Shown piece after piece: positions 9,090 through 31,633 of a stretch of 32,000 nt of DNA (positions are counted from its first letter, which is position 1; the number at the start of each line of letters is the position of its first letter). Source of the DNA: Thermofilum adornatum. GTDB taxonomy: Archaea; Thermoproteota; Thermoprotei; Thermofilales; Thermofilaceae. The notes beneath the pieces are model-generated. The model had not been told where the DNA came from, did no database searches, and saw nothing but the letters and a program-made list of their open reading frames with translations. Location: contig NC_022093.1 in the NCBI RefSeq assembly GCF_000446015.1, positions 1,530,001 through 1,562,000 of the forward strand. Direction: 5' to 3'. The translations under genes were made by a program, and so were the position numbers.

Positions 9090-9102
9090 TAAAAATATAT
9101 AA
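9090..9102 (-). promoter_or_regulatory. TATA box for the PLP-enzyme gene (leaderless start at 9074)
   Basis: The minus strand reads TTATATATTTTTA, ending about 16 nt before the ATG. Confidence 0.5.
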
Positions 9103-9108
9103 GTATAG

Positions 9109-9279
9109 CTAGCCGCCACAACAGCTAGAAGACTCCCCAGCCCCACTCACGAGCTTGTTCTTCTCGTACAGCTTCTCCCAGCAGTCTCTACAAACCCACA
9201 CGCCACCTAGCTCCTTGTGCTCGGCAAAAAGCAGTGTCTCAACTTCTTTCCCGCAGATCGCACACTTATACTTCTTCAC
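9109..9279 (-). CDS. Small zinc-ribbon protein (56 aa), missed by the ORF track
   Basis: GTG start preceded by GAGGTGATACGGC (SD GAGGTGAT) and an upstream TTTTTATATCTC TATA box. The product is MKKYKCAICGKEVETLLFAEHKELGGVWVCRDCWEKLYEKNKLVSGAGESSSCCGG, with two CxxC knuckles. Confidence 0.45.
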   Translation of the reverse strand: MKKYKCAICGKEVETLLFAEHKELGGVWVCRDCWEKLYEKNKLVSGAGESSSCCGG

Positions 9280-10116: not shown

Positions 10117-11343
10117 TTACTTCTGGGTATCAGTCGAGATGACACTTTCAACGTCCCATACCTCGACTCTTTCTGGCTCCCGGGGCAGATCCTCCCTGTC
10201 TGGTACGAAGACAATTCTTTTGCATGGAAATCTTGATAGCTTCTCCTCTATGTTTCTCAACTCGCTTCTTGGGATGTTCTCTTTCCACTTCACCTCGACT
10301 ACGGCTACTAGTTTCTGGAAATCCGTAAGCGCTATATCTACTTCATAGTCCTTTTCGACAATCTTCTCGGGCCAAAGCCCCATCTTTCTCGACAACAATC
10401 TTGCGACGAACTGTTCAGCATAGAGAGGTATCCTCTCGGCCAGCACCTTTAAGGCCTGGGCCTCCTGGATATCTCTCTCACTTACACCATACTTCGCATC
10501 GAGATAATAATAGTAGTCTATCACCGGGGAAGCATGCCTATAATAATACTTGTTTTTCCCATAAATCTTAACTTTCTCAAGCAACCCTATATCCGCGAGG
10601 ATCTTTAGGTAAGGATGCACCAAGCTCGGGTCCTGTGCCGGGATCAACCTGTGCGAGTATAGCTGTGAAGCTATCTCGGTCGACACCTGCCTTCCATCGG
10701 CTACAGCTTTTAGTATGCCGTCGTATACACGGGTATACATCCTCTCTTCCTCCGTAAAAATCTCCCCAATAAGCGAGGGAACAGTAAGCCTCACCGTTCC
10801 TGGAAGGGCTCTAAAAAAATCTCCAGCGCTCTCCCAAACGGGGACAAGCCACGGCTCTCTCAAAAAGATAGAATACTCTACCAACTTTTTCTTGTCGCCT
10901 ATCTTGTCCCTCAAGTTCAACAAAATGTCTACCTCATCTATTAAGCCCATTCTAAAGTCCGAGAAAAGGCCAAGAACAGGCGAGTGCTTCCCAATTAGCT
11001 CCCTAGCCAACCACAGTGTCGAAGAGACAGCGACAAGCCTCCCCCTCACCCCCAGCCTGTGAAGCAAGTCAAAAAATTCGCCCGGCAATCGCTGGACTTC
11101 ATCAACAACCACAGCCTCGTCTCTCTCTAAGCTCTGAGCAACCTCCCGCTTGAAGGTCTCATAGCTCAAAACAGAGTCTTCCTCGTATATGAGCCCGCCC
11201 CTGCCAACAAAATAGTACCTATCATACTCTACGGAGCTCCTAACAAAAAAGCTCTTCCCCACCTTCCTCCTGCCATAAACAAGAACCCACCTACCTGTGT
11301 TTCTAAACCTTTCTACATCACTAAAACGGATTATACTAACCAT
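10117..11343 (-). CDS. Archaeal AAA+ ATPase with wHTH and C-terminal PD-(D/E)XK-like domain (COG1672 / Arch_ATPase + DUF234 type), paralog 1
   Basis: Walker A YGRRKVGKS, Walker B VVVDEVQRL, C-terminal YEVDIAL...VVEVKW (D...ExK). The start is set at the internal ATG 11343 (MVSIIRFSD...) by alignment with the paralogs. Confidence 0.8.
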   Translation of the reverse strand: MVSIIRFSDVERFRNTGRWVLVYGRRKVGKSFFVRSSVEYDRYYFVGRGGLIYEEDSVLSYETFKREVAQSLERDEAVVVDEVQRLPGEFFDLLHRLGVRGRLVAVSSTLWLARELIGKHSPVLGLFSDFRMGLIDEVDILLNLRDKIGDKKKLVEYSIFLREPWLVPVWESAGDFFRALPGTVRLTVPSLIGEIFTEEERMYTRVYDGILKAVADGRQVSTEIASQLYSHRLIPAQDPSLVHPYLKILADIGLLEKVKIYGKNKYYYRHASPVIDYYYYLDAKYGVSERDIQEAQALKVLAERIPLYAEQFVARLLSRKMGLWPEKIVEKDYEVDIALTDFQKLVAVVEVKWKENIPRSELRNIEEKLSRFPCKRIVFVPDREDLPREPERVEVWDVESVISTDTQK

Positions 11344-11561
11344 AAATAGTCTAACTATAATTATGGTAATAAAGTTAACCACGTACCACCTAACCTCCGA
11401 AGCTCAACCTGCTTCAAATACACGTTCCAAGCCTAAAGTGTAGTAAACCCCCAGCCACCCTGAGACAACCTACCTTTTGTATGATTCAGTCTGTGGAGAT
11501 TTTTTCCCAAGCGTTCGTGTCATCAGAAAACTATATGAACACGTTCATAATGATCATAAAC

Positions 11562-12938
11562 ATGATGAATATATTCATAAATAGGGAAAGAGAACTACAA
11601 TTCCTAGAAGAGAGGTACCTCTCTAACCGGGCTGAACTAATAATAATCTACGGACGTAGAAGAGTTGGCAAAACCTTCCTATTGAGGAAATTCCTCGAAG
11701 GCAAAAAAGGAGTATACTTCGTGGTTTCAAGGCTCGGAAACATCCTCCAAGATTTCTCAGGAGCCATAGCAGACCAGCTAGGCGTGTATCCTCCCATGTT
11801 CCTCAGTTACAAAGACTTGTTCAGGTACATGGCTCAGGAAAGTAGCAGGGAAAGAACAATTTTCATTGTTGACGAGTTCCAGAGACTCGCCGAGAGCGAC
11901 TCATCCTTCTTGATGGAGCTACAGTCTGCCTGGGACAACTTTCTCAGAAACTCCAACATTTTTCTTGTCTTGAGCGGCTCCTCTATAGGGGTAATCGAGA
12001 AAATAGCGCTATCATCATCTTCTCCCATTTTTGGTCGCCGAACGGGACAACTCAAATTAAAACCATTCATTTTCAAGTGTGCAAAAGAGTTTATGAAGAG
12101 CTGGCCCTGCGAGGACAAGATCCGGGCTTACGCCGTCTATGGTGGCACACCTGCCTATCTATCACATATAGACACATCAAAGACACTAATCGACAACATA
12201 AAACGCAACATACTGGAGCCAAGCGGCCCACTCCACGAGGAACCATACTTCCTACTCTCCACTGAGACACGAGAGCCGCTACGATACATGGCCATACTCG
12301 AGGCGATTGCGTCGGGTGCCACGACCCTCGGCGAAATAGCCTCTAAGAGCGGTATCTCTACAAACGAGTTGCCAAGATACATCAGGACCCTCGAGGCACT
12401 ACTAGACCTTGTTGAGAAGAGATATCCACTCCTAGAGGAGGGGAGACGTGGAAGAGCAATATACATCATGAAGGACAATTTTATACGCTTCTGGTTCAAG
12501 TTTGTAAGGCCCAACCTCTACATACTCGAACTAGGAGAAGTAGAAAGGGTAGCCCAGAGGGTAAAAGAAAACCTAGACCAATACGTATCCCAAGTATTCG
12601 AGGAAATCGCCCTTGAACACTTCTCCCACGCTGTCCCAGCAATAAGGATTGGAAAATGGTGGAAAGGCGAAACAGAAATAGACGGCGTAGCAATAGACGA
12701 GAAAACCAAGACAGCATACTTCATGGAGGCAAAATGGACAAACAAGCCAGTAGACAAACAAGTCCTAAGACAGCTAGAAGCCAAAGCCCAAGAATTCGAC
12801 TGGAAGAAAAACGAGAGAAAAGAAGTCTACTACATATATTCAAGAAGCGGGTTCACGTTCACACCAGAAGAAGACGTGAAACTAGTAAACCTGCAGGAAA
12901 TCTGCAACAAACCATGCAACCAAGAGAGCATAACTTAA
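11562..12938 (+). CDS. Archaeal AAA+ ATPase with wHTH and C-terminal PD-(D/E)XK-like domain, paralog 2
   Basis: Walker A YGRRRVGKT, Walker B FIVDEFQRL, wHTH ILEAIASGATTLGEIASKSGIS, C-terminal TEIDGVAI...FMEAKW. The start is set at ATG 11562/11565 (MMNIFINRERELQFL) because it aligns with MIVRFVDRREELEQL of paralog 3. Confidence 0.8.
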   Translation: MMNIFINRERELQFLEERYLSNRAELIIIYGRRRVGKTFLLRKFLEGKKGVYFVVSRLGNILQDFSGAIADQLGVYPPMFLSYKDLFRYMAQESSRERTIFIVDEFQRLAESDSSFLMELQSAWDNFLRNSNIFLVLSGSSIGVIEKIALSSSSPIFGRRTGQLKLKPFIFKCAKEFMKSWPCEDKIRAYAVYGGTPAYLSHIDTSKTLIDNIKRNILEPSGPLHEEPYFLLSTETREPLRYMAILEAIASGATTLGEIASKSGISTNELPRYIRTLEALLDLVEKRYPLLEEGRRGRAIYIMKDNFIRFWFKFVRPNLYILELGEVERVAQRVKENLDQYVSQVFEEIALEHFSHAVPAIRIGKWWKGETEIDGVAIDEKTKTAYFMEAKWTNKPVDKQVLRQLEAKAQEFDWKKNERKEVYYIYSRSGFTFTPEEDVKLVNLQEICNKPCNQESIT

Positions 12939-13329: not shown

Positions 13330-13475
13330 AATTTAAATAGGAACCATAGGTAAATATATATTTTTCTCTGTGTCGCACGTTGAGTCGAACTAGCAGTGGT
13401 GGTTAGGTGGGACGTTTGGCTCAAACTAAGTAGCTCGTAAATTTTTAATAGCGCCTGCGAGACTTTTATAGATAG

Positions 13476-14240
13476 ATGTCTCTGTCTGCTAGTGAGAAGA
13501 AGAGGTTCCTGAGGGCCCTCGAGGAGGACAGGGAGTTTAGGTACGCGGTGGCAGGGTACTTGGGGCTCTCTGAGACGCTTAAGAGGCTTGACAGTCTAGA
13601 GGAAAGTATGAAGAAGCTTTGGGAGGAGGTTAAAGCGCTCAGAGGAGATGTAAACACATTAAAAGACGGCGTGGGCACGTTGAAGAGCGATGTGAACATG
13701 CTTAAAAGCGATGTAAACATTCTAAAGAGCGACGTAAACATACTTAAAAGCAATGTAGGCACGCTGAAGGACGATGTCGGTTCGCTGAAAGCAGACTTCA
13801 GCATACTAAAGAGCGATACTGGGACTCTGAGGGAAGACGTAAGGCATATCCGCACAACCCTGGAAAGGTTAACTCTGACAGCCGAGGAAGAGGCTAGAAG
13901 CGTGGTGAAGCACAAGCTGAAGGAGAAGCTAAACATCGACATAGAGCTAGACAGGGTCTTCATAGACGCAACGGAGGTGGACATGTACGGCGCCATGGGA
14001 GACATCTGCGTGGTCGGCGAGGCTACGGTGAGGCTTGGACCCAGCCTGGTAAACGAGCTACTAGGCAAAGTAAAGATGATAAGGGACAAGAGACCTGACC
14101 TCCTCAGAAGAAAGCTAATCAAGGTCATATACACGGACTATGCGACCCCAGAAGCGATAGAAGCCGCCGCGAAGAGCAAAGTCTGGATACTAAGATGGGA
14201 AAAAGAACTCACACCGCTATCTATCGAGGAGATTGGTTAA
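13476..14240 (+). CDS. Coiled-coil protein with conserved N-terminal EFRYAVAG module and C-terminal PD-(D/E)XK-like domain (paralog P1)
   Basis: The N-terminus is FLRALEEDREFRYAVAGYLGLSETLKRLD. This is followed by 10 heptads of type SDVNxLK. The C-terminus is EVDMYGAMGDICVVGEATVRLG (acidic D ... GE motif). It possibly corresponds to the DUF3782 + DUF1626/PDDEXK_10 families (from memory, unverified). Confidence 0.7.
   Translation: MSLSASEKKRFLRALEEDREFRYAVAGYLGLSETLKRLDSLEESMKKLWEEVKALRGDVNTLKDGVGTLKSDVNMLKSDVNILKSDVNILKSNVGTLKDDVGSLKADFSILKSDTGTLREDVRHIRTTLERLTLTAEEEARSVVKHKLKEKLNIDIELDRVFIDATEVDMYGAMGDICVVGEATVRLGPSLVNELLGKVKMIRDKRPDLLRRKLIKVIYTDYATPEAIEAAAKSKVWILRWEKELTPLSIEEIG
13644..13853 (+). 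repeat. 10 tandem imperfect 21-bp (heptad-encoding) repeats inside P1
   Basis: The units start at 13644, 13665, 13686 ... 13833. They encode GDVNTLK DGVGTLK SDVNMLK SDVNILK SDVNILK SNVGTLK DDVGSLK ADFSILK SDTGTLR EDVRHIR. Confidence 0.85.
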
Positions 14241-14644
14241 GCAGAGTTTCCAGACCCCAGTAGAACCAGGCCAGCCATGTACTATCATTCGTAGTGTGCA
14301 CAATTGTTTTACCACGTTTAGCGCGTATATGAGGAAACACCGAGGATACTTGCATCCGAGATGGTTTTTCGTCAATTGTCTATGGGATTTTTTTGGTAGA
14401 ATGCTGGTGATGTGCACTCCGAGGCCAAACGCTAATGTCCTCGCGCTTTTGAGGAGAACGAGGGAAATACCCCTGGTTGCCTGCGATAAGGAGAGCGAGG
14501 AGGCCTTCAGGAGGGCTGGGATAACAACCTCTGGGATGCTCGTTGAGATTGGCTCACTAAGGTTCCTATTTGTTGTTTGAAAGGATTTATTGTGCCTGGA
14601 AGTATAATTAATAGAGGTCTTCGTGTGTAGGATTAGTGGAGTCC

Positions 14645-15307
14645 TCAGCTTGTCTCCTCTATGGCTATGGGTGTAAGGTTTCTCTGCCAGTCGAGCACCC
14701 AGACTTTGTTGTTTATGGCGACTTCCAAGGCCTGCGGGACAGCTACATAGGTGTAGATGGCTTTGATAATTTTCTTTCTGAGGAGCTCCAGTCTCCCCTG
14801 TTTGATAAGCTCTATTCTCCTTATGAGTCTTTGGACGCGTTTTGGTCCAAGCCTCGTTGTTGCCTCGCCGATTATGCAGATGTCCCCTGTTGCGCCATAG
14901 ATGTCTATTTCCTCGGAGTCAACGAAGACGCGGTCCAGCTCCACGTCTATTCCTAGCTCTTGTTTAAGCCTGTGGGCTATGAAGCTCCGAGCCTCTTCCT
15001 CTAGGCTCAGGGCTAGCCTGTCTGTTGTGACATGGATGTGCTTTACCTCTCTCCATAGTTTTTCTTGTCCTTTACGTAGAGCTCTGACTTCTTCCCATAT
15101 CTTTTCTTGGCTTTCTCTCAACCCTTTTACTTCTTCCCATAGCTTTTTCACTTCATCAAGTATTTGAGCCATTTTTTCCTCGTGGGAGTCAAGCCTTTTC
15201 ATTATTTCGGAGATTCCTAGATAGCCAGCTACCGCGTATCTGAATTCCTTATCCCTTTCCAGGAGTTCGAGCATTTCCTCTTTTAGCCTGGTGGATCTCT
15301 TTGCCAT
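14645..15307 (-). CDS. Coiled-coil protein with EFRYAVAG module and PD-(D/E)XK-like domain (paralog P2)
   Basis: MLELLERDKEFRYAVAGYLGISEIMKRLD is followed by 14-aa repeats. The C-terminal EIDIYGATGDICIIGEATTRLG is collinear with P1. TTTTATAAAAA TATA lies about 25-30 nt upstream of the ATG at 15307. Confidence 0.7.
   Translation of the reverse strand: MAKRSTRLKEEMLELLERDKEFRYAVAGYLGISEIMKRLDSHEEKMAQILDEVKKLWEEVKGLRESQEKIWEEVRALRKGQEKLWREVKHIHVTTDRLALSLEEEARSFIAHRLKQELGIDVELDRVFVDSEEIDIYGATGDICIIGEATTRLGPKRVQRLIRRIELIKQGRLELLRKKIIKAIYTYVAVPQALEVAINNKVWVLDWQRNLTPIAIEETS
15035..15145 (-). repeat. About 2.6 tandem 42-bp repeats (14-aa units KLWEEVKGLRESQE / KIWEEVRALRKGQE / KLWREVKHI) inside P2
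   Basis: The plus strand shows ACTTCTTCCCATAxCTTTT recurring with 42-bp spacing. Confidence 0.6.
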
Positions 15308-17460: not shown

Positions 17461-19140
17461 TTATTGCTTGCCCAGGAAGTCTTCTATTGTTGTGGTTTTT
17501 TGCTGTTCCTCTTGTTCCTCGGTGCTAAGGAGGTAGTCTGCTAGGTCGAGTTTTTCTGGGGGTGTTGTCCATGCCTTGTTCCAGTCTATGTCTTTTCCTC
17601 CAAGCGTGTATCCGAATCGCTCTGTAAAGTTGTCTACCTTGACTATTCCTGGTATGGTGGCGGCTGAGCCAGAGATAAGTGCTTCTCCCGTCATTAGCCC
17701 AGAAAGCCCTTGAACCATTTCCTGCATGACGTCCTCCATGCTTCCGAGGATGTATTCTTGGTCCTTGGGGTTCGCGGTTCTAAGTGCTATCAGCGTGCCG
17801 CACTGGGCGAGAACTGTCTGTGAGAGCTCTCTAGGCCTCTGGCTTACTATCCCAAGGCCTATCCCGAACTTTCTGCCCTCTTTGGCTATCTTCTCGATAA
17901 TTTCCTTCGCGGGGCTCCACCTGCCCTGCGGGACATAGTTGTGTGCCTCCTCGATTATTATCAGTGTTGGCTGCGGCTTCCCGGCGAGGACGCTCGCAGT
18001 TGTTATGCGCCAGAAAGACTTCAGCACGGTAGCCACTGTGGATGTCTGTATGTCGCTGGAGAGCCCGCCCAGCGATAGCAGTGTTATTCCAGGCGACAGT
18101 AGGGAGCTGTATATCCCCATGTATGTTTCTAGGCTTTTCCTGGGCTCTTCCATGCTCAGGGAGCTGTAGAGCTTGTCGCTTGTCCTTGGACGCGTAATGT
18201 AGAAGAGCTCCGTGTTCTCTAGGAGCATCTCTAGCTTGAGTATCAGGTCGTCGAGGGACCGGTCATACTTGTTCCTCACAGATGTTTTCTCTAGGATCTC
18301 GAGTAGCTCCTCGGGCGTATAGTATATTGGGTCGTCTGTCGACGCGTGGCTGTATCTCTGCCTCCTAGCCTCCTGTACAGCGTTCCGGAGATACATTATC
18401 TGTTTTGTTGCGCGGGACGGGTCTAGTTTTAGTATGCCTGCAACCTCTTCTAGGCCGAGGCTCCAGAGGGGGACCTCTAGAGGCTGGGGCTTTATCCCGT
18501 ACCTTGCCTCTAACAGCTTCGCAATTCTGCCTGCGGGGCTTATGACCCTGATGTTGCTCGAGGCTTCAGCCATTGGTATGTATTCGTTGTGTGTGTCTAT
18601 TACGAGAACCCTTGCGTAGGGGAACTTTTCAGATATCTCGCCAAGAATAACTGCCACGGTATTTGATTTTCCCGCGCCAGTCATCGCGAGGACAGCGAAG
18701 TGCCTAGAGCATAGCATGTTGAGTGATAAAGTGTATGGCACTTCGGGGTTCTGCGAGAGCTTGCCAATTTTTATCTCTCCATTTGAGGTCAAGCTGGATA
18801 ATTCTTCTGCTGTTGCAAGGTAAACCTTTTGCCCAGGCTTCGGTAGCTCAGGCACGCCCCTTATAAAGCTCTTCCCGTCATGGAAGCCTACAAGCATGGC
18901 TACAAGCTCGTTACGTGTCGGGCGTATCTCCGGGTATCCTTCAAGCTCCTCTATAATCCTACTTTTCCTGTACAGCTCGTCTAGAAGATTAAAGCTCACG
19001 ACCATTGCGTAGGCCCATCCACGCGTTATCTCCATCTTTACGTATACCCCTGGCTTAGCAATATGTTCCAGTTTTTCTTCCTGGACACCAAACCTGACGA
19101 GGCTCTGACCATAGACATTTGTAACCCTACCTATCTCCAC
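17461..19140 (-). CDS. herA: HerA-type hexameric DNA translocase/helicase ATPase (FtsK-HerA superfamily), copy 1
   Basis: HAS-barrel-like N-terminus MEIGRVTNVYG. Walker A LAMTGAGKSNT, Walker B TLIIIEEAHNYVP, and GIGLGIVSQRPRELS. GTG start at 19140. Confidence 0.9.
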   Translation of the reverse strand: MEIGRVTNVYGQSLVRFGVQEEKLEHIAKPGVYVKMEITRGWAYAMVVSFNLLDELYRKSRIIEELEGYPEIRPTRNELVAMLVGFHDGKSFIRGVPELPKPGQKVYLATAEELSSLTSNGEIKIGKLSQNPEVPYTLSLNMLCSRHFAVLAMTGAGKSNTVAVILGEISEKFPYARVLVIDTHNEYIPMAEASSNIRVISPAGRIAKLLEARYGIKPQPLEVPLWSLGLEEVAGILKLDPSRATKQIMYLRNAVQEARRQRYSHASTDDPIYYTPEELLEILEKTSVRNKYDRSLDDLILKLEMLLENTELFYITRPRTSDKLYSSLSMEEPRKSLETYMGIYSSLLSPGITLLSLGGLSSDIQTSTVATVLKSFWRITTASVLAGKPQPTLIIIEEAHNYVPQGRWSPAKEIIEKIAKEGRKFGIGLGIVSQRPRELSQTVLAQCGTLIALRTANPKDQEYILGSMEDVMQEMVQGLSGLMTGEALISGSAATIPGIVKVDNFTERFGYTLGGKDIDWNKAWTTPPEKLDLADYLLSTEEQEEQQKTTTIEDFLGKQ

Positions 19141-19146
19141 AACTCT

Positions 19147-19153
19147 TCACCTC
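19147..19153 (-). promoter_or_regulatory. Shine-Dalgarno GAGGTGA for herA copy 1, embedded in the nurA stop codon
   Basis: The minus strand reads CTGAGGTGAAGAGTTGTG. The TGA stop of nurA lies inside GAGGTGA, and 6 nt follow before the GTG start. Confidence 0.55.
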
Positions 19154-20331
19154 AGACCAGCCTTCACCCTTCCACTTGGAGCGTAAGCGGCCCTAACAAT
19201 AGAGTCTGCCTTACGCTTATAAATCTCGTCAGCGACAAGGCGCGCAATCTCTGGGTTCAGCACGGCCATGTGGTGGACATAGCTGAGAGGCTTCGGGTAG
19301 CCCCTACTGTCCGAGAGCTCCTTCAGGGTCGCAAGGGCACTTAGAGCCTCATCTTCGTCCACATAGCTTGGATAGGTCATCTGTAGAACTGGTCCAAGTT
19401 TTCTCAGCTTAAAATACAAGACAGAGTAGTCGCCCCAGGTTCCCAAGATCTCCGAGACAAGTTTCCTGTCGGCCGCGCATGGCTTTAGTCGTCCAAACTC
19501 TTTCCCCCTAAGAGTTGTGTATGCGTCTTCGAGGTTTCTCCATGCATAGTCAAGCAGGGTTACATCGTTGAGCCAGCCCTCGAGCCCAACTTTTTCGACA
19601 AGCAGGTTTGTCTCTGAGTCTTTTGCTACCCAGAAGAGCGGCACCTGTAGCTCCCGGCTAGCTGTCAACAAGTCTCTCAGGGCTTTAAGGTATACTGTTG
19701 TCTCGACGTAGACGCATACAAAGTCAAGAAAGCTCTTCTTCGAAGAGGTTTTCTCAAACATTGTGTTTCTTTCCTTGTATATTTGCCAGGCCTTGTCAGA
19801 AATCTCCTTAAACAGCCCCATTACAGAATTTGGGGATATGTCTCTATCCTCTAGCTCTATTCCAAGATGCTCCGCGTCCGGCAAATTATCGAGAATCTTT
19901 TTATAGTCTTCGCCCAGAGCCTCTGCGGCGTCCTTTGGGTGGCTGAAAACTGTCATCATTTCGGATATGAAGCTCCCGTCTAGTAAGATAGCCTCAAGGC
20001 TACTAGTCAAAGCTTTTCGTGCAGCTAGGAGCTCGATGATGGACATCAAGAGGTTTGCCCTCTGCTCGCCATAGCTCTTGGGCACAATAACAGAGACGAT
20101 TGGCTCCTCTGCCCCCCTAGCTAGAGCAGAATATTTTCCATTTTTTAGGAGAATGGATGCAACAGAGAATACTGCAACGTGTATACTCCTCCTCGGCTCA
20201 ACGACGTTGCTTCCATCAACGTATCCCGTACTCGTAAAAGGTTTTCCACTAATAGGCTCTGCCTCTTCTGCAAGCTCTTTCTCTACTCCCCTTAGAAGCT
20301 CCTCTGATACATGTAGCAATGCATGCTCCAT
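19147..20331 (-). CDS. nurA: NurA-family 5'-3' nuclease, copy 1
   Basis: Motifs YVDGSNV, IELLAA, ILLDGSF and C-terminal GYPKPLSYVHHMA give the D/E/D/H pattern of NurA. It lies immediately upstream of herA. Confidence 0.8.
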   Translation of the reverse strand: MEHALLHVSEELLRGVEKELAEEAEPISGKPFTSTGYVDGSNVVEPRRSIHVAVFSVASILLKNGKYSALARGAEEPIVSVIVPKSYGEQRANLLMSIIELLAARKALTSSLEAILLDGSFISEMMTVFSHPKDAAEALGEDYKKILDNLPDAEHLGIELEDRDISPNSVMGLFKEISDKAWQIYKERNTMFEKTSSKKSFLDFVCVYVETTVYLKALRDLLTASRELQVPLFWVAKDSETNLLVEKVGLEGWLNDVTLLDYAWRNLEDAYTTLRGKEFGRLKPCAADRKLVSEILGTWGDYSVLYFKLRKLGPVLQMTYPSYVDEDEALSALATLKELSDSRGYPKPLSYVHHMAVLNPEIARLVADEIYKRKADSIVRAAYAPSGRVKAGLR

Positions 20332-24077: not shown

Positions 24078-25448
24078 TTACTGGCTTTTAAGAAGGCCAT
24101 AGATGTCGCTAAGGTCATAAGCCAGATAGCCCTTTTTTCTAAGTTCACTTTTGTCTTCTATGTTTCTGGCTATGATTCCATATATCTTCTCCCCTACCTC
24201 CAGCTCTACGGCTTTCCGTTCAAGACTCGCAACGAGACTTTCTGCTTCCCGCATGTCCAAATCACTCCACTTAACCTCAAAGAGCAGTGCAGCACCTTCA
24301 CTTTTAGACACAGCCACGATATCTATTTCCTTGTCTCTGCTCCACCAGCCCCCAACAGCTTCGGGCCTCACAGGTAGCTCGCCTCGCCTCGTTGCCTGTA
24401 CAACGAATTCGCGTGCTATGCGTTCAAATACCCATCCTAGATAAGTGTTGAAGTTTTCCTGCTCCCTTTCCCAGACTTCATGTTCAAGCCCAGCCTCGAG
24501 AGAACGCATGTTCGGCCATACAAACTTGAACCAGAACGAGAAGAAGGGGTCCCGTATCGTGTACCGAGAACGGCCTTTCCCCACCAGAGGCTTTTCCCTC
24601 TCGATTAGGCCCAGGAGCTCCAGGTAGGATAGGTACGTTGTAGCGTTTTCCCTCTTTAGCCCTGTGGCGCTGGCTATCTCGCTGAGAGTTGTCCTCCCCT
24701 GGGCAATTGCGCCTAGAATATCCATGTACCTTGCTGGAGCCCTAAGCTCCTCCATCAGGAGGTATACAGGCTCTTCGTGTAGGGCACCACGCTTGCTGAG
24801 GACTAGCTTAACAGCATTCTCCTCTGGGCTCTCATTCTCGTCGACAAGCTCGAGGTATGCCGGGGTCCCGCCAAAAACGCCGTATATCTTCACGGCATCT
24901 ACCGGGCTCAGCCTGTCAAACCACTCTAGAACCCCTCCGAATCCCAGGGGCTCAAGCTTGATGACAGCCGTCCTCCTGCCATAGAGCGGGGCATCCCCAC
25001 GCAGAGCAACGCGGACAATTGTGCCTATAGCCGAGCCCGAAAGTACAAGGACTGAACCTGTCCGAGACAGCTTCTCGTCCCAGTACCTCTGCAGAAGGGA
25101 AAGCGCCCCCTCAACCTCTCCAAGCCTCTGAAACTCATCAATAACGACAAGGTAGCCCTGCTCCATCTTGGTAGCGAGATATTCGAGGAAAGAGTGAAAG
25201 CTTGGAAACCTAAACCCCTTAAAGAACTCGCCCTCTACACTGCGGGAAAACTCTTCAAGTATAGTCTCAGAGCCTCCCCTGGGGACATAGAAGTACAGCC
25301 CCCTCCTCTTGCGAAGGAGTTCCAGTAGTAGCCTAGTCTTGCCCACTCTTCGCCTCCCATAAACAATGACAAGCTGGGACTTTCCACTTGAGCACAGCTC
25401 CCCTAGTTGCTCTAACTCCTCTCTCCTATCAACAAATCTTACAATCAT
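24078..25448 (-). CDS. Archaeal AAA+ ATPase with wHTH and C-terminal PD-(D/E)XK-like domain, paralog 3
   Basis: Walker A YGRRRVGKT, Walker B VVIDEFQRL, wHTH ILGAIAQGRTTLSEIASATGL, C-terminal KEIDIVAV...LFEVKW. Confidence 0.85.
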   Translation of the reverse strand: MIVRFVDRREELEQLGELCSSGKSQLVIVYGRRRVGKTRLLLELLRKRRGLYFYVPRGGSETILEEFSRSVEGEFFKGFRFPSFHSFLEYLATKMEQGYLVVIDEFQRLGEVEGALSLLQRYWDEKLSRTGSVLVLSGSAIGTIVRVALRGDAPLYGRRTAVIKLEPLGFGGVLEWFDRLSPVDAVKIYGVFGGTPAYLELVDENESPEENAVKLVLSKRGALHEEPVYLLMEELRAPARYMDILGAIAQGRTTLSEIASATGLKRENATTYLSYLELLGLIEREKPLVGKGRSRYTIRDPFFSFWFKFVWPNMRSLEAGLEHEVWEREQENFNTYLGWVFERIAREFVVQATRRGELPVRPEAVGGWWSRDKEIDIVAVSKSEGAALLFEVKWSDLDMREAESLVASLERKAVELEVGEKIYGIIARNIEDKSELRKKGYLAYDLSDIYGLLKSQ

Positions 25449-25750: not shown

Positions 25751-26167
25751 TTACGAATAAGCCTCAAGGAGCTGGCTGGCCTTCTTGCTCCTCTTTACCT
25801 CTCTCAGCAACACCTTATCATACGTGACAAGAACAGCGTCAAGCTTCTCGGCCAAAGCAACATAAATCGAGTCATAGACAGTTAACCCTTTTTCAAAAGC
25901 TATACTGACAGTTTCACCAAGAACTTCCACAAAGTCGTGAACAACAAGTCCAATACTCATCGTTGCCGCAACACCATCCGCGACATCTCCAGGCGTTAAG
26001 CCCCGCGAATACCTAAGCAGGTTTGCAAGCTCAACAAATACAAGACTAGGAACATGGGCCTCAATCTCGCTTCCAATAATTTTGTCGCGAAGGAGCTTCA
26101 TTTCCCTTGATTCCTCCTCTACAAGAAACCACTTCGCCAATGCACTCGCATCAAGCACGACCCTCAT
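25751..26167 (-). CDS. vapC: PIN-domain ribonuclease toxin (VapC-type)
   Basis: MRVVLDASALAKWF carries the first Asp. VFVELANLL, VYDSIYVALA and the C-terminal LVTYDKVLL follow. The ATG overlaps the upstream antitoxin stop (TAATG). Confidence 0.85.
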   Translation of the reverse strand: MRVVLDASALAKWFLVEEESREMKLLRDKIIGSEIEAHVPSLVFVELANLLRYSRGLTPGDVADGVAATMSIGLVVHDFVEVLGETVSIAFEKGLTVYDSIYVALAEKLDAVLVTYDKVLLREVKRSKKASQLLEAYS

Positions 26168-26400
26168 TAAGCCACCCTTCTCCGAGACTCCCTAAACTCT
26201 CTTATCACTTCATCAGAGGGCTTCTCCAATTTAGCCCTACGAGAAATATCATCCATGACACTGACAGCCCATTCCAGCTCTCTGCGCCTAACCTCTTCCT
26301 CGAGAGCCCTCCGCAAAACCTGACTAACGTTCACATTGTATCTCCTAGCCTTCTCCAACAATTCCCTTTTCACCTTAGTAGACACAGTAACGTAGCCCAC
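26167..26400 (-). CDS. vapB: Ribbon-helix-helix type antitoxin (VapB-like)
   Basis: I place the start at GTG 26400 (VGYVTVSTKVKRELLEKARRYNVNVSQVLRRALEEEV gives a beta-alpha-alpha RHH pattern). TTTTTATA lies about 24 nt upstream. The N-terminal 46 codons of the track ORF look like translated promoter sequence. Confidence 0.6.
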   Translation of the reverse strand: MGYVTVSTKVKRELLEKARRYNVNVSQVLRRALEEEVRRRELEWAVSVMDDISRRAKLEKPSDEVIREFRESRRRVA

Positions 26401-26636
26401 ATTCTTATTACCTAAAAAGGTAGTATAAAAATACGACTCCAATTCCAATTCAAACGATTGTCGATACATTCCTGCTAAAAGCCAAGTATCTTGTCTTTTA
26501 TAGCCCAGAATATATAGGCACAGCTGAAAATTTTTCACCTACATGGAGAAAACAATGCTCAAATAATAAGACCTAAAAGCTTGTGACCAAGAAGATACTA
26601 ACCGGCGAACCAGAACCCATACTCCACAAAAGTGAG

Positions 26637-27521
26637 CTAGATCTCGTTAACTGGTGCCAACTCCTTCATTTGCAGTGCAGGAGGCCTCTGCTCCTGAACA
26701 CCATTTAGATTGATGTACGCCTCGGCAATAGCCTCCCCAAGCCTTGTCAACTTTACTACCCTCGACTTTCCGTTCAGCTCCCTCACCAGCAGACCCTTCT
26801 CCTCCATTTCCTTTATCAAGCGGCTATACGTAGCCTTAACAACCTGATCCCTCCAGTTCTCGCCCATCCACTGAATAAGCTGGGTAAGGCTACTCGCAGA
26901 CCCATTCTTGAGATAGAGCACCTGCAGAATCCTCACCTCCTTTTCAAGCTTTTCATCCTCCTCGGAACCCCCCTCCTTCCTTTGCCCCCTCTTTTTAATC
27001 CTCTTGTTCTCGTCAAGCAACAAGTCTACGCCAGGCTTCTCTATCTGCTGGACAGCTCCAGGGCCACTAGAAGCCCTAAGACTATCCTTCTTAGCTATAA
27101 ACCTCGCAAACTCCGGCGTATCAGGATCAGGTATAAATTCGCCCACCTGTTCAGGCTGAACCGCGTAGAGCCTGCTCCCGGGAAACATCATAGAAACATT
27201 AGTAACACACGCAACCATCAATGGAGGCATATCCGTGATATCTATCAGGGTCTCCTTTTCCCTCTCAACCCATAATACCTGGTAAAACTTGCTATACACA
27301 CTCTGCTGGTTCAGCGGATTAACCTTGACAGTCACCGGCTGGAAAAACGAGAGCTTCTCGGCAAGCCTCTTAACGTTGTACCGCGACACCGCCCCGTACC
27401 GGTCAGGCTTCTCATCGTAAAAAAGGTAGACACGTTCAACTGGATACTTTAGCCTGACCTGCTCGAAGCCCTGAAGTATCAGGTTTGGGTGGAAGCCTAC
27501 GTAGTGCAGTGTTACTACCAT
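26637..27521 (-). CDS. Csa3-like regulator: N-terminal CARF-type Rossmann domain plus C-terminal winged helix
   Basis: VVTLHYVGFHPNLILQGF...VERVYLFYDE...TLIDITDMPPLMVACVTNV...RLYAVQPE follows the strand/helix pattern I recall for Csa3 (xFVTMGFNETF...LVIVVP...IISDLTMGMRMI...YVRDE). A K/E-rich linker is followed by the wHTH VRILQVLYLKNGSASSLTQLIQWM...GLLVRELNGKSRVVKLTRLG. Confidence 0.65.
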   Translation of the reverse strand: MVVTLHYVGFHPNLILQGFEQVRLKYPVERVYLFYDEKPDRYGAVSRYNVKRLAEKLSFFQPVTVKVNPLNQQSVYSKFYQVLWVEREKETLIDITDMPPLMVACVTNVSMMFPGSRLYAVQPEQVGEFIPDPDTPEFARFIAKKDSLRASSGPGAVQQIEKPGVDLLLDENKRIKKRGQRKEGGSEEDEKLEKEVRILQVLYLKNGSASSLTQLIQWMGENWRDQVVKATYSRLIKEMEEKGLLVRELNGKSRVVKLTRLGEAIAEAYINLNGVQEQRPPALQMKELAPVNEI

Positions 27522-27555
27522 TGGTACGCCACTTCTGCCTCTATAACGAATTCGC

Positions 27556-27655
27556 GTTACCAGTATATATACCTAGTGTTATTGTTGTCGGGAAGTGTTT
27601 ATGGTAACATTTTATTGCAACTATTTTCCCAGATCTTCCCATCTATCCTGGTAAC
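27556..27655. promoter_or_regulatory. Three copies of a (C)TGGTAAC / GTTACCA(G) motif in the divergent intergenic region (candidate operators)
   Basis: GTTACCAG at 27556-27563, TGGTAAC at 27602-27608 and CTGGTAAC at 27648-27655. The first and third are exact inverted copies of each other, and spacing is about 46 bp. Confidence 0.4.
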
Positions 27656-27668
27656 TAAAAAATGCTAC

Positions 27669-27689
27669 TATAATACGGATATAATACGG
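27669..27689 (+). repeat. Tandem 11-bp duplication TATAATACGGA-TATAATACGG
   Basis: Copies lie at 27669-27678 and 27680-27689, one helical turn apart and about 50 bp upstream of the nurA-like TATA box. Confidence 0.6.
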
Positions 27690-27735
27690 GGATACTAATT
27701 GTTTTCTGTAGAATTGTCCATGTTATTCTCGCGCC

Positions 27736-27743
27736 TTTTATAA
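27736..27743 (+). promoter_or_regulatory. TATA box (TTTTATAA) of the NurA-like/HerA-like operon
   Basis: It lies 32 nt upstream of ATG 27775, consistent with a leaderless or near-leaderless transcript. Confidence 0.5.
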
Positions 27744-27774
27744 GAGACGTGGCACGGGTAGAATATGATCATGT

Positions 27775-28776
27775 ATGGCGTCCTTGACTAGGGCTGGCTA
27801 CCTAGATGTCGATGTGAAAATGCTTGTCGAGAAGGTCAACCAGATATATAGGCAGAAGGGGGGCTTCGTCCAGCTGACGCTGACGGGCGAACCTGTGAAG
27901 CCCTACCCCTACTTCAGGTTTGACGGGAAGATTATCAAGGGCCCACCCATCTCGGAGACAAGGTTTAGGGCTGTCGAGGAGGTTCCACACAAGGAGACCG
28001 TGGTCTCTGTGGACGCGGCGGCCCGAATACTCTTCGACGCGGGGAGCTTCAAGATAGTGTCTGCAAAGGTCGCAGGGGGAGTATGGAGGGGGGTAGAGCG
28101 TGTAAAACTCATGGATACAATCAAAAGAGTGAAGGTGGTCGAGAGCCTAGACGAGGCTGCTGACTGGCTGGCAGAAGTAGAACTCGAGGCAGTGGCTGGC
28201 CTCGTCAAGAGCTATCCTGGTGCGCTCGTCCTACTTGACAGGCCCCTTGTGTTTAGGAGTGGCACAATGTCCGCTAAGGCCTACAGGCGTCTGGTAGAGA
28301 GGGACTGGAGGGTGGTCGGGATGCCTAAGAGTAGCAGTATAAGGCTTTCCAGCGGGGAGAGCGCCTTGGGCTATGTGTCGAGGCTTGGTAGCAGGATGTT
28401 TAGGGACATGGCGTGGAGCTATTATCCCCTCGTAGAGGACGAGAAGCTGGGCATAGGAATAGGTGCCGTGAAGCTTTCGCCGAGCGGGCCGGTCTTTAGG
28501 CTCGATGTTGCTTGGGAGCTCTCGCTGAGGGCCGACTTCGAGTACCTGTCAGGGATGCTTGCTTACCTCCAGGACTTCACGTCGCCGGGCTACCCGTTGC
28601 CGCTCAAGATTGTCCACAACCTTTCCAGGATAAGCGACGATGAGCTGTCTATGGACAGGGAGCTACTACTTGAGGAGCTAGGCATATCCAGCAAGGCGTC
28701 TATTGCCTCGAAGCTGCTTGAGGACAGCGGTGGCTCAGAGTTCAAGGCCAAGTATCTCTGGGGTGGTATACCTTGA
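27775..28776 (+). CDS. Divergent NurA-like nuclease, copy 2
   Basis: VVSVDAAARIL (Asp), EVELEAVAG (Glu), ALVLLDRPLVF (Asp) and GYPLPLKIVHNLS match the D/E/D/GYPxPLxxVH layout of copy 1. It lacks the DGS and LDGS signatures of copy 1. Confidence 0.65.
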   Translation: MASLTRAGYLDVDVKMLVEKVNQIYRQKGGFVQLTLTGEPVKPYPYFRFDGKIIKGPPISETRFRAVEEVPHKETVVSVDAAARILFDAGSFKIVSAKVAGGVWRGVERVKLMDTIKRVKVVESLDEAADWLAEVELEAVAGLVKSYPGALVLLDRPLVFRSGTMSAKAYRRLVERDWRVVGMPKSSSIRLSSGESALGYVSRLGSRMFRDMAWSYYPLVEDEKLGIGIGAVKLSPSGPVFRLDVAWELSLRADFEYLSGMLAYLQDFTSPGYPLPLKIVHNLSRISDDELSMDRELLLEELGISSKASIASKLLEDSGGSEFKAKYLWGGIP

Positions 28777-30380
28777 AGCTCGGAATAGTAGTGTGGACCG
28801 AGGGGGTGACGGTAAAGTTTAGGATAGCGCAGGAAGCCGTTGTCGAGAGGGGCATGCTGGTAAAAGTCGAAGACAAGGGGAGAACATACATACTCAAGGT
28901 TGTAGACTTCAAGCCAGAAAGCCTGCTTACTCCGGCAGAAATAGCGATCATAAGTAGCAAGGCAGACAAGGGCGAAGCCGTACAGCTCCGCGAGAGGGAC
29001 CTTAGGCTATACGACACAGCCATCTCAACAATCGTTGCACAGATAGACATGGACGGGGAAGTCCACGGGCCAAGCAGTGTCCCCTCGCTGTTTGCCGTCG
29101 TAGAAGAGCTGGAGGAAGAAGACCTAAAGGCTCTGAGGCTACACACGGGGGACATACCCATAGGCAAGATACGCTTCGGCCACAACGTTATAGACGTAGA
29201 CGTCACCCTCGACGGCTCAAAGACGATACCCCACCACGTACTAGTAGTGGGAGGAACGGGGGCAGGCAAAAGCAACTTTGGAAGAGTACTAGCGGGCTCG
29301 ATTCTCCACACTGCTGGCAAATACAGCCTCGTCATATTTGACTGTGAAAGCGAGTACCTACTAGGTTCAAAGCCCGGCGAAATGGGGCTCGCGCACCTCC
29401 CCTTCTCAGAGGAGTACCTCTTCCTCGTCTCAGACAGGGTTCAGAGGCCAGGCAGAATCAGGATAGAGCTTCCTGAGCTGGGAGAAGAGAGGAGCATACC
29501 GGCCTACCCACTCAAGATGGACATAACGCGTCTAAGGCCAAGCGACTTCACCCTCACGGGAGAGTTCTCTGGGCCGCAGGAAGAGCTCCTCTGGATGGCA
29601 TACAAACAGTTCGGGGAAGAGTGGGTCCACTACCTCTTGTCTGGAGAGGGAAGGGCGCTCTACTCAAGGCTTGGGAGAATGTCTGGAGTAAACACTATAA
29701 ACGTGGCAAAGAGAAAGGTAAAGTACCTCACCGGTGAGGGAGACATATTCTGCAGGGACTGCGGCTACGACCTTGCGGGCACCGTGCTGTCGATGATTGC
29801 AAAGGGACGCGTGGTCCTCATAGAGACCCCCTTCGCCACGGAGGGCGAAGAAAAGCTCCTGGCAACCGTGGTTGCGGAGAGGATATTCCGGGCATACGAG
29901 AAAATGAGGAAAGAGCTCCCAGACAAGTGGAGCCAGCTCCCCCCAGTCTTGATAATGGTAGAGGAGGCCCACAGGTACCTAGGCTCCCACGTCCTGGGCG
30001 GGAAGGGCGAGATAAGGGAAAACATCTTCTCGATAATAGCCAAGCGTGGAAGAAAGTACAAGGTTGGAGGCCTCTACATCACACAGATGCCAAGCGAGCT
30101 CATGGAGACGGTCGTGAGACAGTCCCTAACAAAGATAATCCTCTCCCTCCCAACGAGGCCCGACTACTCTACCATAATAAACCACAGCCCATACCTAGAC
30201 GACGCAGAGGCAGAAATAAAGACACTAGACAGGGGAGAAGCAGTAGTAATCAGCCAGCCAAGCGGGTTCAGGCTAGCAGTATCCACCAGGATCTACCAGT
30301 TCGAAGAATACGCCCAAAGGCTGATACGCGAAGAAAAACTAGCACTACAACAGCGGACGGCCGAAGTCTCTAACGTTTGA
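28773..30380 (+). CDS. HerA-like ATPase (FtsK-HerA superfamily), copy 2
   Basis: The TTG start overlaps the NurA-like stop (TTGA). HAS-barrel-like N-terminus KLGIVVWTEGVTVKF...YILKVVDF. Walker A VVGGTGAGKSNF, Walker B VLIMVEEAHRYL, and GGLYITQMPSEL. Confidence 0.85.
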   Translation: MKLGIVVWTEGVTVKFRIAQEAVVERGMLVKVEDKGRTYILKVVDFKPESLLTPAEIAIISSKADKGEAVQLRERDLRLYDTAISTIVAQIDMDGEVHGPSSVPSLFAVVEELEEEDLKALRLHTGDIPIGKIRFGHNVIDVDVTLDGSKTIPHHVLVVGGTGAGKSNFGRVLAGSILHTAGKYSLVIFDCESEYLLGSKPGEMGLAHLPFSEEYLFLVSDRVQRPGRIRIELPELGEERSIPAYPLKMDITRLRPSDFTLTGEFSGPQEELLWMAYKQFGEEWVHYLLSGEGRALYSRLGRMSGVNTINVAKRKVKYLTGEGDIFCRDCGYDLAGTVLSMIAKGRVVLIETPFATEGEEKLLATVVAERIFRAYEKMRKELPDKWSQLPPVLIMVEEAHRYLGSHVLGGKGEIRENIFSIIAKRGRKYKVGGLYITQMPSELMETVVRQSLTKIILSLPTRPDYSTIINHSPYLDDAEAEIKTLDRGEAVVISQPSGFRLAVSTRIYQFEEYAQRLIREEKLALQQRTAEVSNV

Positions 30381-31060: not shown

Positions 31061-31633
31061 ATGAGCTCCCAGCTCAAGCAGAGATTCCTAAGGCTCCTAA
31101 AGGAGGACGAAGAGTTCAGATACGCCGTAGCCGGCCTCCTCGGCCTAGAAGAAATACTAAAAAGGCTGGACAAACATGAGGAACAACTTGTCAAGCTAAG
31201 AGAAGATTTCAATAAACTAAGAGAAGACATGAATAGGGGATTTGAACTCATCGAAAGAAGGATATCTGCTCTTGGGGCAAGATGGGGAATTCAGACAGGG
31301 GAAGCATTCAGAGAGGCACTAAAGGGAATACTAGAGAAAGAATTCGGCGTAAAGTTAGAGAGATGGATCACAGAGGACAACGAAGGTATAGTCTACGATT
31401 ACCCAAGCGAGGTAGAAATAGACATAGCCATAAAGGACGGCAAAACCATCCTAATAGAGATATCTTCCCACATAAAGCCATCCGACATACCAACCTTCAA
31501 GAGAAAAGCCCAACTCTACGAGAAAACAACTGGCAAAAAGCCAGACAGACTAATAATCGTCACCCCCTACGCCGACGAAAAAGCCCTAGAAATAGCTAAA
31601 AAATTAGGAATAGAGATATACACAAAGACATAG
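31061..31633 (+). CDS. Coiled-coil protein with EFRYAVAG module and PD-(D/E)XK nuclease-like domain (paralog P3)
   Basis: FLRLLKEDEEFRYAVAGLLGLEEILKRLDKHEE is followed by a short coiled coil. The C-terminal EVEIDIAIKDGKTILIEISSHIK gives the D...E.S..K pattern of restriction-endonuclease-like folds. Confidence 0.7.
   Translation: MSSQLKQRFLRLLKEDEEFRYAVAGLLGLEEILKRLDKHEEQLVKLREDFNKLREDMNRGFELIERRISALGARWGIQTGEAFREALKGILEKEFGVKLERWITEDNEGIVYDYPSEVEIDIAIKDGKTILIEISSHIKPSDIPTFKRKAQLYEKTTGKKPDRLIIVTPYADEKALEIAKKLGIEIYTKT

Follow-up and report, generated by a model that had tools for sequence, protein, structure and literature searches.

A CARF-type regulator divergently linked to a NurA-HerA operon in Thermofilum adornatum and related archaea

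Layout and conservation of the three-gene locus

We analyzed a stretch of 32,000 nucleotides from the archaeon Thermofilum adornatum (contig NC_022093.1, positions 1,530,001 to 1,562,000), here called the window, in which the gene for a regulator with a predicted CARF sensor domain and a winged helix-turn-helix (wHTH) domain is divergently oriented to 2 overlapping genes for a NurA-like nuclease and a HerA-like ATPase. An earlier note on this DNA, made from the sequence letters, had proposed that the 3 genes could form a ligand-regulated nuclease-translocase module. The 3 open reading frames (ORFs), the 253-bp gap and the TTGA overlap were each found as given there, and the features of the locus are as follows, in window coordinates:

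26637-27521, minus strand: regulator ORF, 294 amino acids
27042-27521, minus strand: CARF-like sensor domain of the regulator, residues 1 to 160 approximately
26706-26963, minus strand: winged helix-turn-helix DNA-binding domain of the regulator, residues 187 to 272 approximately
27522-27774: shared divergent control region, 253 bp, between the start codons of the regulator and NurA
27775-28776, plus strand: NurA-like ORF, 333 amino acids
28773-30380, plus strand: HerA-like ORF, 535 amino acids, with a TTG start

The TTG start codon of the HerA gene overlaps the TGA stop codon of the NurA gene in the sequence TTGA (ccTTGAag, at 28773-28776), and this arrangement indicates that HerA is translationally coupled to NurA.

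Co-location of the 3 genes was examined in Thermofilaceae and Methanomethylicota-like archaea, at about 100 loci that were fetched with either the regulator or HerA as the query. The orthologs of the regulator, NurA and HerA were found together in every informative locus, in the regulator-first as well as in the HerA-first direction, by which accidental adjacency, a possibility raised in the earlier note, was ruled out. With the regulator as the query, the genomes of Infirmifilum sp., T. pendens Hrk5 (in which the NurA protein is Tpen_1441) and one lineage with 44% identity were found to contain the regulator, NurA and HerA, surrounded by unrelated genes. A scan of metagenomes with the regulator yielded 61 loci with identities of 38% to 97%; divergent genes for NurA and HerA were present in all of those with at least about 1 kb of sequence upstream of the regulator gene, and the exceptions were cut by contig ends. 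The HerA homologs extended to Methanomethylicota and Nezhaarchaeota, and among the matches listed for the HerA query the regulator was present at all loci with at least 45% identity and a usable flank. The listing of the HerA scan of GTDB included no cultured Thermofilum or Infirmifilum, and these genomes were covered by exact-protein look-ups.

The 3 proteins have diverged together. Their pairwise identities were correlated in 42 distinct trios, with Spearman coefficients of 0.66 to 0.85. HerA was the most conserved (mean identity 0.60), ahead of the regulator (0.46) and NurA (0.43), and the linkage was kept in trios with pairwise regulator identities down to 28%. The genes flanking the trio varied by lineage and were mostly for housekeeping, transport and metabolism functions (141 flanking proteins from 18 lineages). 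The trio is probably a self-contained three-gene module of the Thermofilaceae and neighboring Thermoproteota, including the Methanomethylicota-like lineages, that has been inherited mostly vertically.

The regulator and its putative ligand pocket

An AlphaFold (AF2) model of the regulator, inferred from 28 homologs, had a predicted local distance difference test (pLDDT) score of 83 overall and of more than 90 for residues 1 to 120 and the C-terminal domain, and gave the β/α order of the N-terminal domain as well as the helices and the wing of the wHTH. The assignment of the N-terminal domain to the CARF/Csa3 fold in the earlier note was tested by a Foldseek search against the PDB, and it held: the best 50 of 64 matches with E-values of at most 0.001 were all CARF proteins. 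The top match was Csa3 (2wte, E = 1.3e-8), followed by Csa3 bound to cyclic tetra-adenylate (cA4; 6wxq, 6w11) and, at lower ranks, by Csm6, the CARF-wHTH ring nuclease Sis0811, Can2, Card1, Cad1 and Cam1. The C-terminal winged helix, also predicted in that note, aligned with the wHTH domains of Csa3 and MarR: the family profile matched residues 144 to 240 of Csa3 2wte (E = 7e-4) and MarR-family structures, and sub-threshold Pfam matches to DUF6293_C and MarR spanned regulator residues 226 to 268. A CARF plus wHTH architecture is supported by the predicted structure, for which the sequence by itself had given thin evidence.

It was also noted that the 2 domains are joined by a linker with an insertion of about 20 amino acids rich in lysine, arginine and glutamate (DENKRIKKRGQRKEGGSEEDEKLEK; residues 168 to 195 approximately, window 26940-27020). 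The insertion was modeled with low pLDDT and was absent in all orthologs with less than 90% identity.

The description of the regulator as Csa3-like stood for the architecture and the best structural match, whereas the sequence placed the protein elsewhere. The window regulator had no match to Pfam Csa3_N (PF22662) at E-values of up to 1, and it matched HFX_2341_N with 20.2 bits (cut-off 30) and DUF6293_C with 20.2 bits (cut-off 27); PADLOC models for CARF proteins matched with E-values down to 1.6e-9. The 34 detectable homologs all belonged to Thermofilum, Infirmifilum or uncultured archaea related to these. Most of the orthologs, with identities of 39% to 61%, contained PF19810 and/or PF22665 according to precomputed Pfam assignments, and some were named "HFX_2341 family" or "DUF6293 family" proteins by NCBI. 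When 1.8 billion representative proteins were searched exhaustively with a profile, 173 relatives were found in total, of which 12 were close. In 30 relatives sampled across this range, HFX_2341_N (PF19810) was identified in 23, Csa3_N weakly in 2, and the Card1 CARF domain sporadically. Judged by these matches, the regulator belongs to the HFX_2341/DUF6293 branch of the CARF regulators, outside Csa3 proper.

The protein shares with Csa3a and Csa3b of Saccharolobus and Sulfolobus (2wte, 6w11, 6wxq) the two-domain architecture, the best structural match, the G-F dipeptide at residues 9 and 10 and the wHTH sequence. It differs from them in the lack of a Csa3_N match, of Csa3 motif 2 and of adjoining cas genes or CRISPR arrays. 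Moreover, its presumed target, an operon that encodes a NurA-HerA paralog without Mre11-Rad50, has a fixed place in cis. The family closest in sequence, HFX_2341/DUF6293 (PF19810 plus PF22665), is also found outside CRISPR loci with mostly vertical inheritance, and its member HFX_2341 of Haloferax mediterranei, described as a global regulator with a repressive effect on cas genes, is vertically inherited and independent of CRISPR (PMC11434293). No NurA-HerA partner is reported for HFX_2341, and the window regulator further differs in its scores below the Pfam cut-offs and in one pocket loop, which reads D-I-T-D-M-P-P and not D-x-T-S-T-T-[KR].

The pocket of the CARF-like domain is predicted to be formed by 4 loops:

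G9-F10-H11
D36, K38 and Y42
D94-I-T96-D97-M98-P99
G127-E-F-I130-P131-D-P133

Both positions that had earlier been read as diagnostic are present, in that strand 1 (residues 2 to 8) leads into G9-F10 within VVTLHYVGFHPNLILQGF, and strand 4 (residues 90 to 94) leads into the loop I95-T96-D97-M98-P99 within LIDITDMPPLMV. In 28 aligned orthologs with identities down to 38%, the invariant residues were G9, F10, H11, D36, K38, Y42, D94, T96, D97, M98, P99, G127, I130, P131 and P133, and also F138. Almost all of these are located in the β1α1, β2α2 and β4α4 loops and in the loop after β6, whose equivalents surround cA4 in Csa3a (PMC8699464), so that the most conserved residues of the regulator are those of the pocket loops rather than those of the core or of the DNA-binding helix.

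In Csa3a, Gly9 and Phe10 of motif 1 (T-h-G-F-[ND]-E-x4-R) touch the ribose and adenine of cA4, Gly96 and Arg98 of motif 2 (L-x2-G-h-R) in the β4α4 loop bind its phosphates, and the β2α2 and β5β6 loops complete the pocket (PMC8699464). In the window regulator, G9-F10 are numbered as in Sso1445, H11-P12 replace [ND]-E, and there is no arginine at position +6. The β4α4 loop reads L92-I-D94-I-T96-D97-M98-P99-P100, without Gly-h-Arg, and is invariant in the Thermofilaceae-type orthologs. The caveat of the earlier note about a non-canonical DITDMPP loop was therefore justified, as Csa3 motif 2 is absent.

The regulators linked to NurA-HerA contain 2 types of this loop, D-x-T-D-M-P-P in the Thermofilaceae and D-x-T-S-T-T-K in the Methanomethylicota-like archaea. 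The sequence after strand 1 is V-G-F-H-P in the former and V-G-[HY]-D-Y-Q in the latter (L008, L010, L012, L022, L023, L025). Since D-x-T-S-T-T-[KR] is also the pattern of the wider HFX_2341/DUF6293 family, from which the window lineage deviates, it seems that the loop was remodeled in the window lineage and its sequence then frozen. A single output module would thus be combined with 2 pocket chemistries. Because a phosphate-binding loop of the Gly/Arg (or S-T-T-K) type has become D-M-P-P, the ligand in the window lineage is probably not canonical cA4, and such a role for cA4 appears doubtful.

The loss of motif 2 and the acidic, proline-rich loop could also be explained if the CARF-like domain were a ligand-free dimerization scaffold and the protein an ordinary repressor or activator with autoregulation, by which NurA-HerA would be kept at a constitutive level. 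The scores of the window regulator, which are below the Pfam cut-offs of every CARF-type model, are in line with this explanation, as is the finding that DNA binding by Csa3a in vitro was independent of cA4 (PMC8699464). We nevertheless consider it quite unlikely, because frozen surface loops are not expected in a domain that serves only as a scaffold: nowhere in the protein is conservation higher than in the 4 pocket loops, and the G9-F10 dipeptide, whose counterpart in Csa3a stacks on adenine, is kept at the same residue numbers. We infer that the pocket is functional yet chemically unlike a cA4 site.

The shared control region and its candidate operators

The intergenic region between the regulator and NurA is about 250 bp long in most of 54 distinct orthologous regions. 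The sequence GTAACA was present in 45 of 52 distinct intergenic regions, as compared to 7.5 in shuffled sequences, and the dyad GTAAC-N8-GTTAC (with the variants GTATC and GATAC), matched at 8 or more of 10 positions, was present in 43 of the 52, as compared to 5.4 in shuffles. The 70 unique sites gave a 24-bp consensus, AYR-GTAAC-N8-GTTAC-YRT, with an A/T-rich N8 spacer, in which the 3 flanking positions on each side (A-Y-R and Y-R-T) are mutually palindromic even though they were outside the search pattern. The dyads cluster at positions -190 to -170 and -140 to -120 relative to the NurA start, most often 45 to 48 bp apart, and the usual layout consists of 2 dyads about 46 bp apart, placed between 2 conserved TATA-like boxes. 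The 8-bp spacer resembles that of the CAPPa site of Csa3a (TCCC-N8-GGGA; PMC8699464), from which the dyad differs in its half-site, GTAAC instead of TCCC.

The following elements were located in the control region of the window, where BRE stands for the TFB-recognition element:

27543-27560: dyad site C, ATAACGAATTCGCGTTAC, matching 9 of 10 core positions, between the TATA-like box and the start codon of the regulator; candidate autoregulatory site
27564-27571, minus strand: putative TATA box of the regulator gene, TATATATA, within the conserved block CCAGTATATATAC (27560-27572), 43 to 50 bp upstream of the ATG
27601-27624: candidate dyad operator A, atg-GTAACATTTTATTGCAAC-tat; member of the -190 to -170 cluster, separated from the NurA start by about 171 bp
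27648-27671: candidate dyad operator B, ctg-GTAACTAAAAAATGCTAC-tat; member of the -140 to -120 cluster, separated from the NurA start by about 124 bp
27722-27743, plus strand: putative BRE/TATA of the NurA-HerA operon, with the half-site GTTAT at 27722-27726, N9, and TTTTATAA at 27736-27743

The block CCAGTATATATAC was the most conserved in an alignment of 18 diverse intergenic regions, and ATATATAC/GTATATAT occurred in 25 of 52 regions where 1.5 were expected. The same alignment contained the conserved columns GTTAT...aCyT-TTaTAa. We infer promoter roles for the blocks CCAGTATATATAC and GTTAT-N9-TTTTATAA from their sequences. About 35 bp separate the putative TATA box of the NurA-HerA operon from the ATG downstream of it, and this distance suggests a near-leaderless mRNA. 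Sites A and B, which are spaced 47 bp apart, lie upstream of both putative promoters, whereas the location of site C between the TATA box and the start codon of the regulator suggests autorepression. Other lineages also contained a dyad at a promoter-proximal position equivalent to that of site C.

The main targets of the regulator might instead be located elsewhere, as in a global or CRISPR-directed regulator of the Haloferax HFX_2341 type, in which case its position would reflect shared promoter space or co-inheritance. HFX_2341 influences many genes and represses cas genes from afar (PMC11434293), and matches to the dyad pattern elsewhere in the window occurred at chance rate, so that other targets are possible. 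However, 3 of the 12 matches in the window fell within the 253-bp control region, that is in 0.8% of the 32-kb sequence, and multiple dyads are kept at conserved positions. With the co-divergence of the 3 proteins, and a linkage that persisted in all informative loci despite low regulator identity and changing flanking genes, such a regulator seems very improbable here.

An RNA element in the intergenic region was considered and rejected, as there was no Rfam match and the fold z-score was -0.42. Elsewhere in the window, a 31-bp palindrome, GAAACTCTTAAAGGTTACCCCTTTGAGTTTC (5398-5428), was located between a divergent gene for a RACo-like protein (3474-5369, minus strand) and an ABC transporter operon (from 5513, plus strand). 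This palindrome matched the dyad pattern loosely, without the A-Y-R and Y-R-T flanks, and is probably the operator of another regulator, such as the one encoded by the nearby PadR gene (2992-3420).

The NurA-HerA pair, its relatives and its proposed role

The NurA protein matched Pfam PF09376 with 38.5 bits (cut-off 21) and HerA matched PF01935 (DUF87) with 54.7 bits (cut-off 23.2). The D/E/D/H residues of NurA and the Walker motifs of HerA, which had been recognized previously, are present and intact. Among the NurA orthologs, D80, E136 and D155 were invariant and H281 nearly so, the latter being part of the conserved motif PGYPLPLKIVH, and the family profile matched the NurA protein of S. 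solfataricus (2ygk) around GYPxPL..H of the catalytic region. In HerA, Walker A is GGTGAGKS (residues 160-167) and Walker B is LIMVEEAH (residues 393-400 approximately), of which VEEAH was invariant, and among PDB entries the family profile matched HerA of S. solfataricus best (4d2i, 2.7e-38). The 2 proteins can accordingly be read as a NurA nuclease and a hexameric HerA DNA translocase with all catalytic motifs intact. They resemble the archaeal NurA-HerA end-resection complex (2ygk/4d2i) in both Pfam matches, which are above the cut-offs, in the catalytic and Walker residues and in the translational coupling, and the coupled pair is a paralog of the archaeal machine for end resection at double-strand breaks.

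The scores for the canonical equivalogs in NCBIfam were far lower. NurA reached 11.7 bits for NurA_Sulf (cut-off 400), and HerA reached 70.9 bits for HerA_Thermprot (cut-off 800) and 75.2 bits for helicase_HerA (cut-off 970), or approximately 10% of the cut-offs (71-75 versus 800-970 bits). Unlike the canonical herA-mre11-rad50-nurA operons, the trio has a dedicated divergent CARF-type regulator, and Mre11 and Rad50 were not found at the trio loci, in the window ORFs scanned, or among the called genes within 10 kb beyond either window end. For the latter, the flanks were taken from contig JAVZRQ010000003.1 (GCA_038880475.1, a Thermofilum-like metagenome-assembled genome) with precomputed Pfam assignments. 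Furthermore, the pair is one of at least 2 NurA-HerA pairs in the genome. A second pair, overlooked in the earlier note, was identified on the minus strand at 17461-20331, about 8 kb from the trio:

19147-20331, minus strand: second NurA (NurA2), 394 amino acids, Pfam NurA 6e-17
17461-19140, minus strand: second HerA (HerA2), 559 amino acids, DUF87 7e-40 plus HerA_C; full-length match of 275 bits to the PADLOC HerA model PDLC04105

The second pair showed only motif-level similarity to the pair of the trio, its scores were far below the cut-offs of the canonical equivalogs, and no regulator, Mre11 or Rad50 gene adjoins it. At least one further HerA protein, Tpen_1571, is encoded in T. pendens. 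Given the very low equivalog scores, the second pair 8 kb away and Tpen_1571, the pair of the trio cannot simply be equated with that of canonical repair.

About 67 outgroup HerA loci with 28% to 33% identity were found in DPANN archaea, Thermoplasmata, Methanosarcinales, Actinomycetota and Jordarchaeum. The regulator was present in none of them, and many were NurA-HerA-Mre11-Rad50 operons. Compact operons of this type were seen in DPANN and other uncultured archaea (L011 at 5106-10779, L028, L030-L034, L036-L038, L041, L044, L050 and L074), and metagenome-assembled genomes of Actinomycetota contained similar operons with more distant partners of the Mre11/Rad50 type (for example L042, L064, L066, L078 and L086).

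As stated in the earlier note, there are neither cas genes nor a CRISPR array in the window: none of the 23 main ORFs scanned matched a cas family (a few ORFs at about 13 to 16 kb were left out), and no CRISPR-like array was found with Tandem Repeats Finder. No cas family was listed among the called genes in the 10-kb flanks, and no CRISPR array was present in 87 trio loci (872 kb). The 141 flanking proteins contained no recurrent defense family, and no cas family was among their 25 most frequent PADLOC or Pfam families; the PADLOC matches were chiefly to ATPase-type and DndA/SspA-type models. Neither the regulator nor this HerA clade had relatives on viral contigs. A hidden CRISPR association was ruled out by the absence of arrays from the window and the 87 loci and of cas families from the scanned ORFs and flanks, and a mobile-element or viral origin by the absence of the module from viral contigs.

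These results bear on the possibility that the trio is an antiviral module, in which an infection signal binds to the CARF domain and switches on NurA-HerA for the degradation of invading or host DNA. The signal would be a cyclic oligoadenylate (cOA) produced by a type III CRISPR system at another genomic locus, or else a different nucleotide messenger. The CARF domain is the standard sensor of cOA, and the best structural matches of the regulator include cA4-bound Csa3, Csm6, Can2 and Card1. Pairs of HerA and NurA that co-evolve with type III systems have been described in crenarchaea (PMC6546367), toxin-antitoxin genes and a gene for a PD-(D/E)XK protein flank the trio in the window, and the D-x-T-S-T-T-K loop of the Methanomethylicota-like regulators is compatible with phosphate binding. 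Solved structures of anti-phage HerA proteins were among the PDB matches by sequence, and the PADLOC and NCBIfam models for anti-phage HerA also matched, although far below the cut-offs (70.8 bits versus 800 and 56 bits versus 850 for the NCBIfam equivalogs).

We consider an antiviral module unlikely all the same, given the lack of adjoining arrays, cas genes, recurrent defense families and viral carriers, and given that the trio co-diverges as a unit in every related lineage sampled and is not patchy. The Gly/Arg phosphate-binding motif is absent in the window lineage, and transcriptional induction would be slow for abortive infection. The PADLOC model for HerA co-evolved with type III systems (PDLC01055) matched with 62 bits only, and another HerA model scored better. 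The likeness to the type III-coevolved HerA-NurA pairs (Shah et al. 2018, clusters 57/58) consists of a HerA protein with a nuclease and a conceptual link between CARF and cOA, without the adjoining type III cas genes. Sir2-HerA and DUF4297-HerA likewise combine a HerA ATPase with an effector; here, neither Sir2 nor DUF4297 was found in the flanks, and the partner of HerA is NurA. The trio is moreover conserved, co-diverging and located outside defense islands, in contrast to the patchy distribution of the anti-phage and type III-linked HerA systems.

A role in DNA-end processing is preferred over defense because the nearest relatives, with about 30% HerA identity, are located in NurA-HerA-Mre11-Rad50 repair operons, because the unit co-diverges in every related lineage sampled, and because there is no defense or cas neighborhood. 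In the mechanism that we propose, a dimeric CARF plus wHTH factor would bind to the array of 24-bp dyads in the region shared with the divergent NurA-HerA operon and would thereby control nurA-herA as well as, by way of the promoter-proximal site, its own gene. Binding of a small molecule to the CARF pocket, located where the 2 subunits of the dimer would meet, would shift the 2 wHTH domains in the manner of cA4 in Csa3a and so alter expression. The placement of operators A and B upstream of both core promoters makes us lean toward ligand-dependent activation of nurA-herA combined with autorepression, and the output most likely serves inducible DNA-end processing under DNA damage or replication stress. 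With moderate confidence, we favor the view that the trio is a ligand-controlled, self-contained unit of a regulator and its operon for DNA-end processing.

Several observations weigh against this view. Several anti-phage systems combine HerA with an effector, and weak matches to anti-phage HerA models were also obtained for the HerA protein of the trio. The second pair in the window and Tpen_1571 leave it ambiguous which pair is the partner of Mre11-Rad50, and hence also the specific role of the pair in the trio. The main dyads are located 65 to 130 bp from the presumed TATA box of NurA, a large distance for an archaeal activator of the classical type, and their A/T-rich spacers could themselves be promoter elements. 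The absence of Csa3 motif 2 weighs on ligand binding, and regulation by HFX_2341, the one protein of the closest family that has been studied, is broad. In vitro, Csa3a bound to the proposed palindrome non-specifically as well as independently of cA4 (PMC8699464).

Going one step further, we tentatively suggest, as an idea to which we assign a low probability, that a sensor of the CARF family left the CRISPR loci, had its pocket remodeled to D-I-T-D-M-P-P, and now senses a metabolite other than cOA, or a signal of damage or infection, to command directly a private NurA-HerA motor that degrades DNA. If true, this would be a previously undescribed archaeal pathway from signal to nuclease, and the TDMPP and TSTTK variants of the pocket would correspond to 2 ligands with one output.

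The earlier note knew of no description of such a module, and none of the trio was found in the literature searched, the coverage of which was incomplete. The regulation of herA and nurA by Csa3 in trans has however been published: Csa3a activates herA, nurA and dpo2 in S. islandicus (PMC7515695), and overexpression of Csa3b led to higher expression of nurA-rad50-mre11-herA (PMC7480081). The idea is therefore less unprecedented than it had seemed. The parts are known, namely a regulator of the HFX_2341/Csa3 type and a NurA-HerA pair; new are the obligate coupling in cis to a NurA-HerA paralog without Mre11-Rad50, the candidate operator and the remodeled pocket.

Regulators of the CARF and HFX_2341 types are present in many archaea without type III CRISPR systems, which raises the question of their signals and targets (PMC11434293). 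The trio offers an unusually clean test case: a single regulator is obligately linked to a single operon, the candidate operator is defined, and the frozen non-canonical pocket has a natural second variant in sister lineages. It gives experiments a way to ask which signals are sensed by CARF regulators located outside CRISPR loci. It also bears on how archaea deploy multiple end-resection machines and on the recruitment of HerA-nuclease pairs between repair and defense.

The genes surrounding the trio in the window include a VapC-like PIN toxin gene (25751-26167, minus strand) and a CcdA/RHH (ribbon-helix-helix)-type antitoxin gene (26167-26538, minus strand) immediately downstream of the regulator gene, a pair that was not kept at other trio loci. 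Downstream of HerA are a gene with DUF3782 and PD-(D/E)XK (PDDEXK_10) domains (31061-31633, plus strand) and a MazE/AbrB-like antitoxin gene (from 31736). Together, the VapBC pair and the PDDEXK_10 and MazE/AbrB genes make the neighborhood mildly island-like in this species, which is different in other lineages. A few kb to the left of the window (locus L158), a HEPN-domain gene (1241-1600) and a fragment of an AbiEii-like nucleotidyltransferase gene (14561-14920), both of toxin-antitoxin type, were located without cas genes.

The window also contained 2 paralogous "archaeal ATPase" genes (24078-25448, minus strand; 11481-12938, plus strand) with Pfam ATPase_2 and DUF234 domains and an internal wHTH, and a third ATPase-type ORF that is AAA_14-like (10117-11382, minus strand). 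Finally, 2 long ORFs on opposite strands (13466-14134, minus strand; 13476-14240, plus strand) were found to overlap across a 21-bp tandem repeat of 3.4 copies (13686-13757).

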